Shown: positions 8,779 to 42,125 of the stretch, in pieces | How positions within the stretch are numbered: position 1 is the stretch's first letter | Layout: every line of letters starts with the position of its first letter | From: Escherichia phage vB_EcoM_VR7 | Reading direction: 5' to 3' (one strand) | DNA length: 64,000 nt | Sequence record: NC_014792.1 | Position numbers and translations under genes: made by a program | The notes under the pieces: model-generated | Told to the model about the DNA's origin: nothing | What the model saw: the letters and a program-made list of their open reading frames with translations, nothing else | Database searches by the model: none

Positions 8779-9459
8779 TTATTCATTATTCTTTTTCCTA
8801 GCATCAGAAGCAGCTTTTCTTCTAGTTCTAGTCCTTTCTAAATCAGCAGCAATCAAATTAGCTATATTAGTAACCGGATTACCAAATTCATCATAAGTAA
8901 TATATTTCCAAGCATATCCAAATGTATGATTTCTCTCATTAAGCAGGCACCTTTTAATAGCGCTGCCTGCTTTATAAATTGAAAGAAATTTAGCTGCATC
9001 TGGTAAATAATCAAAAGTTTCTACCAATTCACCTGAACTTAAATCAAATGCACCAAAAAGCTCAATAGTGTATTTACTCCTATCAAGACTGGCTTTAGCT
9101 TCATGCTTTAAGTGGTTTATTTCTTTTAGAATTTTAAGGTCTAATTGTCCTGGTATTTTATCTATCTGTACACCCATTCTAGATAAAGCATACCCCATTT
9201 TATAGTTTCCTGATTTGGCCAACCAATAGTGAGCCATAATATGGCTTTCTATACTTAGATTTACAAGATTCCATTTAGACGTTTTAAATTCAGGAAATAA
9301 GGATTTAGGTAATATATGGTGAGACTCGGTTTTACCTTTTATTAAAGGCCCGGAAGACTCTATTAAAGAGAAATAGTTTTCAGCAAATTGCCAATAAGGC
9401 AATTTGCTTTTAAGAAGTTCTTTAATTTCGTCTAAGGTTTTAGTAGGCTTAACGGTCAC
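8779..9459 (-). CDS. HNH homing-endonuclease-like protein
   Basis: 226 aa; ESHHILPKS...NLVNLSIESH (HNH-type motif); AT-rich relative to neighbours. Confidence 0.6.
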   Translation of the reverse strand: MTVKPTKTLDEIKELLKSKLPYWQFAENYFSLIESSGPLIKGKTESHHILPKSLFPEFKTSKWNLVNLSIESHIMAHYWLAKSGNYKMGYALSRMGVQIDKIPGQLDLKILKEINHLKHEAKASLDRSKYTIELFGAFDLSSGELVETFDYLPDAAKFLSIYKAGSAIKRCLLNERNHTFGYAWKYITYDEFGNPVTNIANLIAADLERTRTRRKAASDARKKNNE

Positions 9460-9779: not shown

Positions 9780-9947
9780 TCATTTAAAGTTCCAGAATGA
9801 AGCACCAACCAGAAATAAAGGCCAACAAATCATAGACGTCAGCCACCAACAAAAATCACCTGCGCCGAAATCATCCAATTTAGCTAGGGTCTTAGCATAG
9901 CCAATACCAATGATAATATACAAAACACCCAACAATAATTCAATCAT
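9780..9947 (-). CDS. Hypothetical small membrane protein (55 aa)
   Basis: Manual translation MIELLLGVLYIIIGIGYAKT...; ATGA overlap with nrdC stop. Confidence 0.3.
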   Translation of the reverse strand: MIELLLGVLYIIIGIGYAKTLAKLDDFGAGDFCWWLTSMICWPLFLVGASFWNFK

Positions 9948-10207
9948 TTGAAATATTCTCGCAGTTCAGTGAACCCACCAATATGACTTCCGTCAGGAGC
10001 AAACACTTGTGGCATAGTCAAACCAATTTGAGATTCGCGACCAAGTGCAGCCAGGAGTTGAGCAATCTTCTCATCATCAAACACACCTTTTTCTGGCATG
10101 ACGTTGATGAATTCGTAAGGTTGTTTTTTAACATCCAAAAAACGTTTTGCATTATCGCAGAATACACAGCGATGGATAGATGAATCATAACCATATACTT
10201 TAAACAT
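9944..10207 (-). CDS. nrdC: Glutaredoxin NrdC
   Basis: 87 aa; MFKVYGYDSSIHRCVFCDNAKRFL... matches remembered T4 NrdC. Confidence 0.85.
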   Translation of the reverse strand: MFKVYGYDSSIHRCVFCDNAKRFLDVKKQPYEFINVMPEKGVFDDEKIAQLLAALGRESQIGLTMPQVFAPDGSHIGGFTELREYFK

Positions 10208-35836: not shown

Positions 35837-35864
35837 TTTATTCTCCTCATTAGTTGATGGGATA

Positions 35865-35895
35865 ATTATACACTATCCCATATCTAAAAGTACAC
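35865..35895 (-). promoter_or_regulatory. Early promoter-leader cassette
   Basis: Minus sense GTGTACTTTTAGATATGGGATAGTGTATAATTATCCCATCAACTAATGAGGAG. Confidence 0.5.
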
Positions 35896-36129
35896 TTATT
35901 TTTTACGGAAAATTGATTTATACTGTTTAGCCCATTTCTCGATAACTTCTGCTGGACCCTGGATAACAAAATAGTCCCCAAACTCTTCACCGCCGAGCTG
36001 ACCGTAATTATCTAAGGCGTCGCGGAGAGTTCCATAAGGCATTTCGCCCATTTTATCTTTCTTGCCGGTGTAAATGAATTGCACTTTAACATCAGCAGTT
36101 TCATTAATAAATTCTTGATAAGTTTTCAT
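35896..36129 (-). CDS. Internal-protein-like (CTS-bearing) protein
   Basis: 77 aa; N-terminus MKTYQEFINET. Confidence 0.6.
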   Translation of the reverse strand: MKTYQEFINETADVKVQFIYTGKKDKMGEMPYGTLRDALDNYGQLGGEEFGDYFVIQGPAEVIEKWAKQYKSIFRKK

Positions 36130-36154
36130 GTTGTCTCCAGTAGTTGATGGGATA

Positions 36155-36184
36155 ATTATACTGCAGTTATCCCATCACGTACAC
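36155..36184 (-). promoter_or_regulatory. Early promoter-leader cassette
   Basis: Plus strand gttgatgggataattatactgcagttatcccatcacgtacac. Confidence 0.5.
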
Positions 36185-36462
36185 TAAATTTTTGTATATT
36201 GTCCAGCTTTAACTTTTTTCAGTTCACGAGGGCTTACCGCGTAAGTGAATGGAGCATTCCAGGAAGAACTGACTTTGTAACCTTTAGTCAACATCATTGC
36301 TGAAACTTTCTTGTTATCAGGACCGTTTTCGCCTTTAACAAGAAACAACTCAAATGCGCCACCATCAACCGGTTTGGCCTTAACCATCAGATGTCCTTTC
36401 AGGTCTTCCAGCATATCCGGGTGACTAATTGATTCGTTAATAAATTCTTGATAAGTTTTCAT
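36184..36462 (-). CDS. Internal-protein-like (CTS-bearing) protein
   Basis: 92 aa; N-terminus MKTYQEFINES. Confidence 0.6.
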   Translation of the reverse strand: MKTYQEFINESISHPDMLEDLKGHLMVKAKPVDGGAFELFLVKGENGPDNKKVSAMMLTKGYKVSSSWNAPFTYAVSPRELKKVKAGQYTKI

Positions 36463-36487
36463 GTTGTCTCCAGTAGTTGATGGGATA

Positions 36488-36517
36488 ATTATACTGCAGT
36501 TATCCCATCGTGTACAT
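36488..36517 (-). promoter_or_regulatory. Early promoter-leader cassette
   Basis: Plus strand gttgatgggataattatactgcagttatcccatcgtgtacat. Confidence 0.5.
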
Positions 36518-36816
36518 TACATTTTTGAACCGCGAATCACGCCATAAGCTGCGAAGTCGTCAGTGATGTTCTTAGGGGTGTTTTTACCAGTTTCAATATA
36601 TGCGATGCTGGATTTCTGACCAAATGAGGTAATTTTATTATAGTTAGAGTCAAGGAAAGTATAACCATTTTTACGCAGCTGGTCAAAGTCTTCAGCGTCG
36701 CCTTTACCTTTGAAGTCAACCCATTTGTATGTGTTTTTCTTCTGAAGGCCCAGAGGCCAGGTTTTTGCTTCTGCCAGGTAATTATTTTCTACCAAAAATT
36801 CGTGGAGCGTTTGCAT
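36517..36816 (-). CDS. Internal-protein-like (divergent CTS) protein
   Basis: 99 aa; N-terminus MQTLHEFLVEN. Confidence 0.5.
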   Translation of the reverse strand: MQTLHEFLVENNYLAEAKTWPLGLQKKNTYKWVDFKGKGDAEDFDQLRKNGYTFLDSNYNKITSFGQKSSIAYIETGKNTPKNITDDFAAYGVIRGSKM

Positions 36817-36824
36817 TTGAAATC

Positions 36825-37097
36825 CTATTTTAGATAAATTGCATATTTTTTATAACCAGCTGTCTCATGGCGGAGACCCTTGTCATTGGCAAAACGCTCA
36901 ATGTTATTAATTTGGTTCTGGTCAAGTTCAGAGATGTCAAACGCGAAAAAGTTGCGTTTGTTACCAATTGTTATATGGTCAGTCAAGTCAATGCTATACA
37001 AGTGATTGATATTGTCAATCATAGCTTTGACTGCTTTACTAATTTTTACTTCTTCATTCAGTTGGGACTCGTTGAAAAGTTCATTAAAAGTTTTCAT
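36825..37097 (-). CDS. Internal-protein-like (divergent CTS) protein
   Basis: 90 aa; N-terminus MKTFNELFNES. Confidence 0.5.
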   Translation of the reverse strand: MKTFNELFNESQLNEEVKISKAVKAMIDNINHLYSIDLTDHITIGNKRNFFAFDISELDQNQINNIERFANDKGLRHETAGYKKYAIYLK

Positions 37098-37499: not shown

Positions 37500-38189
<690 letters not shown>

Positions 38190-38190
<1 letters not shown>

Positions 38191-38867
38191 TATATTACCT
38201 TATTAATTTTATCAAAAAGTTCTTCGAGTGTGCCATCGTTTTTAATAACAATGTCACTAGCTAGTGGTGGAAGTCCAGCTTCCGTAATGTGTGTATCAGT
38301 AGAATGATTTGCTTCATCGCGTTCTACAAAGATTATTGTAGCACCCATCGCCCGAAGCGAATCAAGTTCGTTCTTTTGGCGAACATCTGGGACAACGTAA
38401 TATTTATATCCAGAATAGAGGTTGTCAAGATAATCGCATGCAAAAGTTTTAATCCAAAACATGCTGTCGAACTCTGTACAAACGATATCAGTTCCAAGGG
38501 TCTGCATGAAACGTCTAACTGTCCAGGGCTCAACATTATTTAGTGTGTGAAATTCAATGATTTTACGAACCATATCTGGATTCGGAAGGTCAAGATTATA
38601 TTGTTGTTTCAACCATTCAAGAGCGTCAACCAGAAGAATATGAGCTTCAGTGTTGTTCATTATCAAGGTTTTTTCACGGTCATAACCTTGTCCATCAAAA
38701 TTTTCCAGGGTCAAATTGTGTGGCAGGTCTTGACGAACCCACGCTTTATAAAGCGCTTCTTTAATTGGACCAGCAAGTTGCCACTTTGTTCCGTTTTGAC
38801 TAATAACATAATCAGCGGTCGTATCTTTACCACTGCGTTTTTTACCCACAATCGCAATTAATTTCAT
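38190..38867 (-). CDS. 1: dNMP kinase gp1
   Basis: 225 aa; P-loop GKKRSGKDT at N-terminus; synteny 57A-1-3. Confidence 0.85.
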
Positions 38868-39463
38868 ACGTTTCTCATAGATGGATGCATTGACTTAGAC
38901 CTGATTTCCTGTTGCATTGCTGCATTACTATCAATCTGTGGTCTACCTTCTATTATTATACCATCAATTTCTACAGCAAAAGACTTAAAGTTAAAAGTTG
39001 CTGTTGCATTGATAGCAGGGTCAGAATCTTCTTTATATGAATACTGAATCTCTGACAGGTCGGACGGCCATGCTCCATAGTAATGGATTGACATGACAAT
39101 TTTGTCCTTGTTGTTATCTAAGATATGAAGCGTGACCGCTTCGGGACGACCCTTTGGATGCCATGCTTTTGATTCGTGTGTGATGTAGTTATTAAGCGAG
39201 AGCATCCATTTATAGATATCAAGCCATGCCCTTAGGTCTTTGTCACACAGAAAGTTAACAATCAGCGGGTCGAATTCTATTGTACTACCAGGAAGACTGG
39301 AGCGATTTATACCTTGCGTTCCGCCGGGGACATCCGTCACAGGAATGTGAACCCCTGGGAGGGTAACGTCTTGAACGTTGAGTTTAAAAGTCTGTGTGAG
39401 GTTTGAATCGCTTACCTCTAATATAAAGTTAGTCGTGTTAGTTTGATTATATAAACCTGACAT
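38864..39463 (-). CDS. 3: gp3 tail completion/sheath stabiliser (by synteny)
   Basis: 199 aa between genes 1 and 2; assignment by position only. Confidence 0.55.
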   Translation of the reverse strand: MSGLYNQTNTTNFILEVSDSNLTQTFKLNVQDVTLPGVHIPVTDVPGGTQGINRSSLPGSTIEFDPLIVNFLCDKDLRAWLDIYKWMLSLNNYITHESKAWHPKGRPEAVTLHILDNNKDKIVMSIHYYGAWPSDLSEIQYSYKEDSDPAINATATFNFKSFAVEIDGIIIEGRPQIDSNAAMQQEIRSKSMHPSMRNV

Positions 39464-39547
39464 AGTGCACCTTGTTTGCTTAAACCAATCAGTGTTATAA
39501 TGGTTCTAGACCTTTTGTCCTTACCAATAACACTGACCGATAATAGA

Positions 39548-40219
39548 TTATTTTATTAATGTGTTAAGTCTTAGCTTAGTCATAAACGGATAACGTTCCA
39601 ACATTGGCTTTACCCAGTATCGAGGATGCAATTCCTTTTTATATGCTAGGACCAACTCTCGAGCTTGCTCGACGGTATCAACTCCGAAGTTTTTACACAT
39701 TTCTTGCCTATCTTTTTCCCACCGGCGCTTTGATAATTCTGCGTTGACTTTCGTAAATGTATCATTCTTTCGGTTGTGTTTTTTGCCCGTTGTTGGGCTG
39801 TAATGTCTTCCTTTAACGAATCCTTCTGGAACGTCTTCCCACGGAAATAATTTTATCGATTTGACACCATTATTAAAATAAACTTTTCCCGTTTGACTTT
39901 TCGAAATGTTGTTGGCATGTTTACGTCTTAACCAACCAAATAATTTATTGTTATGCCGTTTATGATTTTTTGAATTTTGTGCCATTGTTGTTGCGGCAAA
40001 ACTTAACCCAGGATGTGTGGGATATATTTTAACCAGTAATTGATGCGCGACATAATGTTCTTCGGGTGTTAAATTAACCAGATTATCTGGGTCATTGGAA
40101 CCGCCCATACATTTTGGAATGATGTGATGAGATTCTTTATATGAAATCAGGACCCTGTTACGGGCCCTTTCAATTAACGATGAATATATAAACTGATAAT
40201 TCAAAGTGAATTTCTCCAA
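39548..40219 (-). CDS. HNH homing-endonuclease-like protein inserted between genes 3 and 2
   Basis: 223 aa; [27 protein letters not shown] (HNH motif). Confidence 0.6.
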
Positions 40220-41037
40220 ACTTTTTGTGCAGAGAATTTTTTGCCTTTGCTGTAAAAAGCTTGCAATGGAAGCATAACAACGTTTGCCCAGTCGCTGGGC
40301 TTGATTTCAGTGATAGTACCTTTTATATTACCAGGTATATATGCTTTAATCATCTGGTCAGCCCCTTTAAATCCCTTCACCTTTGACCAATCAATCTTCA
40401 GATGAGTCTTGTTCGTAATCGTAGGAGTATTAGCATATTGCTTAAGCAGTTCCTCAAGGAACTCTTGACGTGCCTTCGGTGGAATATAGTGCAAGTTCAA
40501 ACCATACATCAAATTGTGCTTACCTAACCCAAGATAAATGATTAACGGATATTTGTCCCAGTACGGAAGAGTATCCTTATGCTTTGCATCATAGATATAA
40601 GCATAAATCTTACCTGGTTGAGGTTTAGCCGTTACGTGTCCTCTGACAGCTTTCTTAATTGTCTCTGCGAACCATCTGGCAGATTTGGTGTTGCTTGCAG
40701 CGCCTTCGTTAGCAATCTTATCTCTTATGCTCTTTCTAAAGCTATTCACCATTATTAGCTGGCGTTCAGCCTTCGTAAGTTTACCAGCAGGTTTCTTTTT
40801 GAGTTTGGATACTTTATAAGCAGTCTGAATTCTCGAATGATATCTTGACATGCTTTTGGTAAAGGTTGAATAGTTGATTCCTTTCTCTTCAGCAAACTTT
40901 TTCGAGGTCATTCCCTTTTCTTTTGCTGTATAAAATTCAACCCCTATCTCAACCCATTGTTGTTCGGATTTACTGGGTTTCGGACCCGGTTTATCTGCAG
41001 ATTCATTGATAAATGTAAAAATACTCATCCTTTCCAT
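40201..41037 (-). CDS. 2: gp2 DNA-end protector protein
   Basis: 278 aa, basic; synteny 3-2-4. Confidence 0.7.
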
Positions 41038-41474
41038 CCTAATTTTTTCAGTGAGTTTTCAGTGATTATCCTGAACGTTATACCCATTTTATCTGCCGTA
41101 GATTGTGCAGCTTTCCATTTGTCCGAGTTAACAGCCCAGGTATACATCTCGTTAATAAATCTCTTTTTGCTCGCAGCGGTATTATTAACAGGTTTGGTTG
41201 GTGGTCTTGTTTCTTTTAATGGCTTAACTTCGAAAAAGAACTGTTGTCCTGTATCAAACTTAACCCAGAAATCCATATAATACCTGCGCTTTTTACCATC
41301 GGCATTGCTAAAGTAAGGGATGATAACAGTCTCAGAACCCCATTGAACAACGTTCGGATGGTTGTCGAGCCATCTCATCAACCAAGCCTCCCAGCTCGAC
41401 CTGTATTGTATTTTCTTCCAGTCACCCTTATATTTTTCTATATTAGTGGGCTTAAATTTCCCGGAGTATGCCAT
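41025..41474 (-). CDS. 4: gp4 head completion protein
   Basis: 149 aa; [37 protein letters not shown]...; divergent from gene 53. Confidence 0.8.
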
Positions 41475-41522
41475 ATAGCCTCCTAATAAATATTGATATA
41501 CTTATTTATAAATGGAGGCTTT
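41475..41522. promoter_or_regulatory. Divergent late-promoter region (TATAAATA-like on both strands)
   Basis: acttatttataaatgg: TATAAAT on plus (41507-41513) and TATAAATA on minus (41503-41510); GGAGG RBS on each side. Confidence 0.4.
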
Positions 41523-42125
41523 ATGCTTTTTTCATTTTTTAACCCAATTGATTATGATGCTAAAACAATCAGAAAAAACCCTGCATCATTGACGAAAGAA
41601 GATGTCTTAAGCATTCCAATGACAGACATCTTCAGAAATTATCGTGCTTACTTTGATAAGGTCGCGGTCAATTATACACCAAAAACCTATTACATCGCCG
41701 GAGCTCCGCGTCCGGAAGAATTATCATATCAGCTTTACGGTAACACGCAGCTATATTGGGTTCTCCTTATGCTCAATGATATCTATGACCCTTATTATGG
41801 TTGGCTTTGTACCCAAGAAGCATCGTATCAAGCATCAATTCAGAAATATTCGAATGTCGGGGGTAATCAGGTCCTTTATCATGTGAATGAAGATGGTGAA
41901 AAGTTCTGGAACCTTGTTTCTTATCCTGATAATCCATACACATGGTACGATAAAGGTGACAAGAACAAATTATATCCACAATACGAAGGTCCATTAGCTG
42001 CAGTGGATATCTATGAAGATGCTATCCGTAAAAATGAATACAAACGCGAAATAAAAATAATCGACCCGGAAGATATTGAGTCATTTATTTCCGCACTTAT
42101 CCGTGAAATGGAGAAGGCGCTATGA
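41523..42125 (+). CDS. 53: gp53 baseplate wedge protein
   Basis: Track ORF trimmed to ATG at 41523 after GGAGG; MLFSFFNPIDYDAKTIRKN...; synteny before gp5. Confidence 0.75.
   Translation: MLFSFFNPIDYDAKTIRKNPASLTKEDVLSIPMTDIFRNYRAYFDKVAVNYTPKTYYIAGAPRPEELSYQLYGNTQLYWVLLMLNDIYDPYYGWLCTQEASYQASIQKYSNVGGNQVLYHVNEDGEKFWNLVSYPDNPYTWYDKGDKNKLYPQYEGPLAAVDIYEDAIRKNEYKREIKIIDPEDIESFISALIREMEKAL

Follow-up and report, generated by a model that had tools for sequence, protein, structure and literature searches.

An HNH homing endonuclease gene of the Mob family, free-standing and with a nuclease function predicted from its sequence, lies between genes 2 and 3 of Escherichia phage vB_EcoM_VR7 (NC_014792.1). 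The whole stretch of 64,000 nt that was analysed is called the window below. A first-pass annotation had proposed that a free-standing homing endonuclease is inserted here into a conserved block of genes, and this proposal is supported by precise empty sites, a sporadic distribution, an intact HNH motif and purifying selection. We consider it highly probable that the locus is explained by a Mob-type HNH homing gene inserted where the gene 2 stop codon meets the gene 2-gene 3 spacer and targeting the 3' end of gp2. The window gene is an uncharacterised mosaic allele of a well-known kind of element, and it will not surprise a specialist. For annotation, the product is best described as a free-standing, Mob-like homing endonuclease of the HNH type, 218 aa long and starting at TTG, and not as a structural or head/tail protein.

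Insertion site, gene boundaries and distribution

The window belongs to a T-even-type myovirus of the genus Gaprivervirus (SP18/VR group). A 24-kb stretch of it is 96% identical to phage VR25, and the flanks in a 2.2-kb region are 98.7% identical to VR26. The order of genes on the minus strand is that of T4 (57B, 57A, 1, 3, the endonuclease ORF, 2, 4), followed by the diverging genes 53 and 5 on the plus strand. The features of the locus are collected in Table 1.

Table 1. Features at the gene 2-gene 3 junction of the window
Feature	Position	Strand	Comment
HNH homing endonuclease gene	39548..40204	-	218 codons + stop; TTG start at 40204-40202
HNH catalytic core	40043..40135	-	residues 24-54: E24, H26, H27, N41, H50, H54
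Insertion relative to gene-less relatives	39551..40206	-	656 nt, exact; junction ambiguous by 1 nt
TAA codon	39548..39550	-	gp2 stop in empty-site phages, HNH ORF stop here, from the filled/empty alignment
New gp2 end	40201..40206	-	extra Leu (CTT) + new TGA; TGA overlaps the TTG start; filled sites end W R N S L *
GGAG, Shine-Dalgarno-like motif	40213..40216	-	9 nt upstream of the TTG start, inside gp2 codons W-R
Small hairpin in the 5' coding region of the endonuclease gene	40149..40168	-	codons 13-19, 5-6 bp, GC-rich
Hyper-polymorphic patch at the gp2 3' end	40218..40285	-	15-82 nt upstream of the insertion; candidate recognition/cleavage site
Patch core	40249-40263	-	QAFYS in the window; QQF[M/V]S in most gene-less phages
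Gene 2, DNA end protector	40201..41028	-	275 codons, intact; PHROG 429, E 3e-78
Gene 3, tail completion/sheath stabiliser	38864..39463	-	intact, downstream neighbour; Pfam Phage_T4_gp19/PHROG tail tube
T4-type late promoter motif TATAAATA	41503..41510	-	before gene 4; no other one precedes the 4-2-HNH-3 block

The insertion is defined to the nucleotide by close relatives that lack the gene. The anchors AAAGTTTGGAGAAATTCA and TAATCTATTATCGGTCAG, which are 656 nt apart in the window, are adjacent in phage CJ20, a near-perfect empty twin with 4 and 2 differences (substitutions and indels) in the 300 nt on either side. The alignments with the gene-less phages VR26 and SP18 give the same insert edges. 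At the empty site, gp2 ends with TGG AGA AAT TCA TAA (W R N S *), followed by TCTATTATC; in the window, the endonuclease ORF opens inside the gp2 end (cTTGa). The two ends of the insert share a 6-nt repeat, ATTATC. A target duplication was considered, but the repeat was judged a chance match between the MNY codons and the beginning of the spacer, both of which are conserved. Gene 2 is the upstream neighbour and the presumed target, and its length of 275 codons is taken from relatives. The mechanical ORF of gp2 begins at ATG 41037 (278 aa), and relatives point to ATG 41028 (275 aa), which overlaps the gp4 stop codon.

Both flanking genes, gp2 and gp3, are intact, and with no intron or intein the position of the endonuclease gene is free-standing and intergenic. 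Neither a group I intron nor any other Rfam family was found in 38800-41600. An endonuclease of the intron-encoded type (I-HmuI or I-TevIII) was rejected: no intron model matches, neither gp2 nor gp3 is interrupted, and the stop codon of gp2 is where the ORF begins. A terminase-associated HNH protein of the HK97 gp74 type was also rejected, the neighbours being gp2 and gp3 and the gene being missing from most close relatives.

As the first-pass annotation stated, an ORF of 223 aa with an HNH motif lies between gp3 on one side and gp2 on the other; in the ORF list it is at 39548..40219 on the minus strand and opens with TTG. Its length of 223 aa is probably too long, and 218 aa is likelier; the overlap with gene 2, given as 19 nt, is likely 4 nt (TTGA) from the second TTG. 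The most likely start is this second in-frame TTG (40204), because the N-terminal M-N-Y is nearly invariant across an alignment of 40 homologues, an ATG stands at exactly the MNY codon in the homologues from Tequatrovirus, Winklervirus, Dhakavirus, Karamvirus and metagenomic phages, GGAG lies upstream, and the second TTG is used in three curated records (VR25, fPSFA and P479). The overlap with the gp2 stop takes the form TTGA, ATGA or TAATG in all alleles, ATGA and TAATG being the forms in other genera. That translation begins at TTG 40219, giving 223 aa and the 19-nt overlap, is unlikely: this codon opens the longest ORF, and it is used in the annotation of UPEC07 and in a metagenomic gene call (P0003, 225 aa), but no homologue from another genus has anything that corresponds to the five extra residues, the codon lies within the GGAG-containing gp2 codons with no Shine-Dalgarno motif of its own, and the curated records take the downstream start.

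We compared the junction of genes 3 and 2 among related phages, as the first-pass annotation had suggested. It turned out that 7 of the 32 records with at least 90% identity carry the gene (6 phages), and about 25 have a precise empty site. Presence of the gene in all relatives, which had been named as evidence against mobility, is not what is seen; it is missing from most close relatives. Beside the window, only 6 of the approximately 30 Gaprivervirus phages in the phage collection have it, and the flanks are 95-99% identical between the window and the close empty-site phages. A homing gene is recognised by being present in some close relatives and absent from others at a single site, which is precisely empty in its absence, and this is what the junction shows.

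The same junction is occupied sporadically in Gaprivervirus, Tequatrovirus, Dhakavirus, Winklervirus, Karamvirus and metagenomic T-even-like phages. About 690 records of the phage collection have a recognisable gp2 3' end, and a full-length homologue is present in about 98 of the collection's records from at least five genera, all the listed ones adjoining gp2 ('DNA end protector'). In RB32, X20, QL01, KaAlpha and seven metagenomic or genomic contigs, the endonuclease gene is immediately upstream of gp3, and gp2 is directly upstream of it wherever the contig reaches gp2 (one contig stops before gp2). The RB32 site is filled and the T4 site is empty; the statement in the first-pass annotation that T4 has no gene at this position proved correct, as there is no CDS between T4 genes 3 and 2. 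One locus, P0006, was considered as a paralogue elsewhere in a Gaprivervirus genome and proved to be the same gp2/gp3 site in another phage. In a scan of IMG/VR with the window protein, VR25 was the only close relative, and the remaining loci share the N-terminal domain alone.

The element is already known at the annotation level, since GenBank labels exist: 'putative mobile endonuclease (VR7ORF161c)' and 'VR7 gp161', both used in the annotations of relatives, and, in the RB32 record, 'RB32ORF146c similar to mobB; not conserved from T4 position'. A literature search on VR25, VR7 or Gaprivervirus together with homing endonucleases found no paper characterising the gene.

Protein family, expression and selection

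The protein matches the PHROG 655 family 'homing endonuclease' with an E value of 1.9e-56. Its Pfam HNH match (PF01844), at 21.4-21.5 bits, just reaches the cut-off of 21.4, and the model also matches 25 of 40 homologues. The motif of the HNH nuclease superfamily (catalytic His, structural Asn, metal-binding His) is present. The core residues listed in Table 1 are invariant in alignments of 40 and of 55 sequences, so that the loss of HNH catalytic residues, which the first-pass annotation had named as a possible objection, is not seen. In the AF2 model (pLDDT 94.5), strands at 24-27 and 42-45 and a helix at 47-60 suggest a beta-beta-alpha topology. With E values of 0.002-0.05, a profile of the family picks up McrA, a group II intron maturase and Cas8-HNH at their HNH motifs, and phmmer and hmmsearch against PDB sequences returned short HNH-motif matches only.

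Comparison with the T4 Mob proteins by BLASTP covered MobB, MobC, MobD and MobE. Identity is 54% over 85 aa with MobE (E 2e-28), 49% with MobB (E 3e-30), 49% with MobD (E 7e-22) and 48% with MobC (E 1e-18). The likeness is confined to the N-terminal 100 residues or so and ends after about residue 105. Mob proteins consist of a common HNH domain fused to distinct C-terminal regions (PMC2988022).

The closest experimentally studied system is T4 MobE, a free-standing HNH homing endonuclease at nrdA/nrdB (Wilson and Edgell 2009, PMC2790892). MobE shares MNYQ.IY...HHIIP.CMGGSDD..NLV.LT..EH..AH with the N-terminal HNH domain of the window protein. Both genes lie directly behind the stop codon of an essential gene, both are sporadic among relatives, neither has an apparent promoter of its own, and both have a hairpin inside the coding region. 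However, MobE has 141 aa and the window protein 218 aa with a helical C-terminal module, and the C-terminal halves are completely different. The insertion sites also differ, and the target is nrdB for MobE, whereas it is presumed to be gp2 for the window gene. Nicking and trans-homing by MobE were shown by experiment (PMC2790892); for the window gene such activities are predicted.

MobB, MobC and MobD have 48-49% identity over the first 75-108 residues of the window protein, and as the similarity stops after about residue 105, their DNA-binding halves are unrelated to that of the window protein. The T4 mob genes occupy a-gt/a-gt.2, nrdG/nrdD and nrdC.11/mobD.1, in contrast to gene 2/gene 3 in the window. 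Annotated orthologues are RB32ORF146c, VR7ORF161c and VR25 gp282, which share the insertion point and the full-length domain organisation; the RB32 and VR25 orthologues are annotated as 'similar to mobB'. Amino acid identity to the window protein ranges from 59% (RB32) to 87% (VR25). The ends of the VR25 allele are 100% nucleotide-identical to those of the window allele, but the gp2 patch differs (QAFYS in the window, QQFFS in the VR25 group). I-HmuI, the HNH nickase of an intron in Bacillus phage SPO1 (PDB 1U3E), has the same plan of an N-terminal HNH domain followed by an extended DNA-binding region, and some paralogues in the family of the window protein have a NUMOD3 or an I-HmuI NUMOD-like Pfam domain (PF07460, PF22083). 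I-HmuI is intron-encoded, whereas the window gene is intergenic and has no Rfam match. Fold and sequence searches did not recover I-HmuI, and Pfam gave no NUMOD match in the window protein.

The search for a promoter of the endonuclease gene found no TATAAATA between gp2 and gp3, within the gene or just upstream of it; downstream of the motif given in Table 1, the next minus-strand match is at 38401-38408, inside gene 1. Sigma-70-like and terminator-like matches in the region are at chance level. The lone late promoter, the TTGA overlap and the weak TTG start suggest late, low-level and translationally coupled expression. T4 mobE is likewise promoterless and relies on upstream transcription (PMC2790892).

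Two RNA structures were seen at the locus. The hairpin at 40149-40168 is a terminator-like site and is the RNAalifold consensus in 12 alleles from several genera, with 95.8% of the cells paired and two-sided (compensatory synonymous) changes in 7 cells, a result that none of 500 shuffles equalled. T4 mobE has an internal terminator (PMC2790892), of which this hairpin is reminiscent. The gene 2-gene 3 spacer at 39484-39541 on the minus strand, from the endonuclease stop to the gp3 start, folds into a long imperfect hairpin (dG -26 kcal/mol, z -3.4). This hairpin is 100% conserved in Gaprivervirus phages with and without the gene, has no Rfam match, and encloses the motif CCATTATA, which recurs in this spacer in each of the five genera examined. 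A hairpin sequestering GGAG by pairing with UCUC upstream was rejected as weak, and the gp2 codons concerned are also found in gene-less phages.

Judged from codon substitution, the endonuclease gene is under purifying selection and is maintained, not decaying. The dN/dS ratio between the window and VR25 alleles is 0.13 overall. Codons 1-29 and 165-218 are nucleotide-identical to the VR25 allele save for one synonymous change, while in codons 30-164 dS is 0.8-1.9 and dN/dS is 0.04-0.05 outside the linker. With identical ends and a far-diverged centre, the window allele is therefore a recombinant (mosaic). The 13-residue linker of the window protein matches alleles of other lineages or genera. 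A 98%-identical partial copy on a Logan contig is the sole such copy found elsewhere, and metagenomes hold a third Gaprivervirus-like allele (83%). None of the seven Gaprivervirus carriers has a truncated ORF.

A polymorphic patch in gene 2 and the putative homing mechanism

A sliding window over 13 Gaprivervirus loci showed flanks that are 95-100% identical save for one patch, in the last gp2 codons. The 68-nt patch holds 14-25 of the 21-72 differences across 1518 nt, with hypergeometric p values of 1e-8 to 1e-21 that depend on the choice of patch boundaries, which were picked after viewing the data. Haplotype A (QAFYS...KKFSA) is that of the window and of the gene-less phages SP18 and CJ20. 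Haplotype B (QQFMS...KRFSS) is found only in gene-less phages, about 15 of them. Haplotype C (recoded VVLLPLQQFFS) is carried by the six other carriers of the gene and by gene-less RZ, as well as, judged by identity, by gene-less TH40 and TH44. TH15 is a C/B recombinant.

The same region varies independently in Tequatrovirus. Between RB32, which has the gene, and T4, which lacks it, 21 of the 44 differences in gp4 and gp2 lie within 90 nt of the gp2 end. They form clusters at -49..-73 and -1..-19 from that end, and the stretch from -259 to -73 is free of differences. Among about 549 Tequatrovirus-type records, about 40 carry the gene, and those listed all have the RB32-type flank; of the records without it, about 450 have the T4-type flank and about 13 the RB32-type flank. 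Across lineages, QQF[M/V]S is altered in 10 of 13 lineages with the gene, as QAFY, QAFM, QAFH, QSFY, QSFQ or QQFF, versus 3 of 26 sequences without it (Fisher p 9e-5, with phylogeny ignored). The motif is kept in 23 of the 26 gene-less sequences, which come from many genera, and it is unaltered in three lineages with the gene, QL01, L141 and L142.

This distribution of substitutions points to the patch as probably the recognition or cleavage site together with substitutions that confer immunity. Gene-less phages with variant patches would arise from short or one-sided co-conversion, and some of the pattern could come from donor flank that was carried along and contributes nothing to immunity. 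Mosaic flanks, and patches of the carrier type in gene-less phages (SP18, CJ20 and RZ, with TH15 a recombinant), are compatible with biased inheritance and co-conversion.

A homing cycle may be outlined for the locus as follows. The gene, having no promoter of its own, would be transcribed late with genes 4 and 2 from the promoter before gene 4, and would be translated at a low level from its TTG, coupled to the termination of gp2 via TTGA. Upon co-infection with a gene-less relative, the enzyme would nick or cut the 3' end of the relative's gene 2, most likely near the LPLQQF(M/V)S codons, 45-75 nt upstream of the insertion point. Nicking is suggested on the model of T4 MobE and MobA, which nick their targets. 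The break would then be repaired by recombination from the carrier genome, and the gene would be copied along with flanking gp2 sequence. Carriers would escape self-cleavage by the cluster of gp2 substitutions (QAFYS in the window), and the gp2 end remodelled by the insertion would possibly add to self-protection. We infer this mechanism, an HNH nick followed by recombinational repair with co-conversion, from MobE and MobA; cleavage, nicking and preferential inheritance are thus ascribed to the window gene by analogy.

It is possible, but clearly less probable than a site within the patch, that the same endonuclease recognises a site spanning the insertion point, AAATTCA|TAATCTATTATC. The insertion alone would then give immunity, and the patch would be a co-converted flank or a mosaic left by mismatch repair. 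Many intron-encoded enzymes do recognise a site that spans their insertion, and the junction sequence with the start of the spacer (TCTATTATC) is conserved across genera. The patch haplotype of the window is identical to that of gene-less SP18 and CJ20, the VR25-type patch occurs in gene-less RZ, and three lineages with the gene keep QQF[M/V]S unaltered; the second cluster of changes between RB32 and T4, in the last 19 nt of gp2, also fits a site at the junction. However, a stretch identical in all haplotypes separates the patch from the insertion (about 17 nt in Gaprivervirus, about 30 nt between RB32 and T4), and the pattern is therefore unlike one contiguous tract from a diverged donor. The same few codons are changed differently by genus (to A or S, and to Y, H, Q or F), and gene-less phages with variant patches are also expected if cleavage within the patch is followed by one-sided or short co-conversion.

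A further reading, which we regard as rather doubtful, extends homing at the patch into an arms race at the gp2/gp3 junction. Diverged and recombining Mob alleles, each with its own recoded stretch of about 15 gp2 codons, would coexist with circulating gene-less 'immune' haplotypes, and the window mosaic would have changed or broadened its specificity. The alleles involved may include the window type, the VR25 type, the L137 type, the RB32 type and others. With a foreign centre and local ends, the window allele may invade other patch haplotypes, possibly those of holders of rival alleles. If this is true, the recognition code of a Mob enzyme that is still uncharacterised would follow from natural variation alone.

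It is improbable that the nuclease is kept mainly for the benefit of the phage, through exclusion of rival markers or through recombination and amplification of neighbouring genes, instead of being purely selfish. T4 Seg and Mob enzymes cause marker exclusion (PMC2988022), a 2026 paper reports SegB to promote the amplification of anti-defence loci (PMC13096335), and the gp4-gp2-gp3 block is a hot spot with further homing genes in relatives. Against this, about 80% of close relatives and most T-even phages do without the gene, which is therefore dispensable; the locus shows nothing that points to a cargo or defence function. In any case, benefit to the phage is compatible with homing and is not an alternative to it.

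Least likely of all, and very improbable, is an inactive or decaying relic that is immobile and persists by linkage to essential late genes like T4 I-TevIII: defunct phage homing genes are common (PMC2790892), the TTG start is weak and the Pfam HNH match only reaches its threshold, but all seven Gaprivervirus carriers have a complete ORF with invariant HNH residues, dN/dS is 0.13 for the whole gene and falls to 0.04-0.05 in the catalytic and linker parts even though synonymous divergence is saturated, and several alleles and patch haplotypes are recombining at present.

Among Mob enzymes, MobE is the only one characterised, plus MobA by personal communication. Coliphages that are easy to grow supply many natural alleles of the gp2/gp3 junction, whether filled, empty or 'immune-empty', and the clustered gp2 substitutions predict the place where the homing enzyme would bind or cut, a result of some added value.

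Other homing genes and mosaicism near the locus

Judged by gene content across relatives, the gene 3-2-4-53-5 block is a hot spot of homing endonuclease genes. In three loci, a PHROG 314-type endonuclease gene lies between gp2 and gp4 (L004, 5166-5894; L005, 5166-5813; L099, 4507-5235). A Mob-like PHROG 655 gene lies between gp4 and gp53 in L008 (5593-6300), and an extra ORF lies between gp53 and gp5 in L005 (6916-7551). All three of these junctions are empty in the window.

Elsewhere in the window, a second Mob-like HNH ORF (226 aa as listed, with ESHHILPK...NLVNLSIESH) is found at 8779-9459 on the minus strand, two ORFs downstream of a thioredoxin-like gene (9944-10207). It matches PHROG 655 with an E value of 1.2e-28, and a tblastn search with the gp2/gp3 enzyme finds it with an E value of 1e-4.

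The head completion gene gp4 (41025-41474, minus strand) has a match to a Pfam TnsA-like endonuclease N-terminal domain (E 1.4e-21), which accounts for the labels 'endonuclease' and 'head completion nuclease' given to gp4 in some records.

The presence of the endonuclease gene explains the local mosaicism around genes 4, 2 and 3. At 37941-38131 (gene 57A) and 35864-36850 (internal head protein genes), sharp islands of 38-66% identity to relatives lie next to DNA of more than 95% identity, a sign that 57A and the internal-protein genes have been exchanged like cassettes within the genus.
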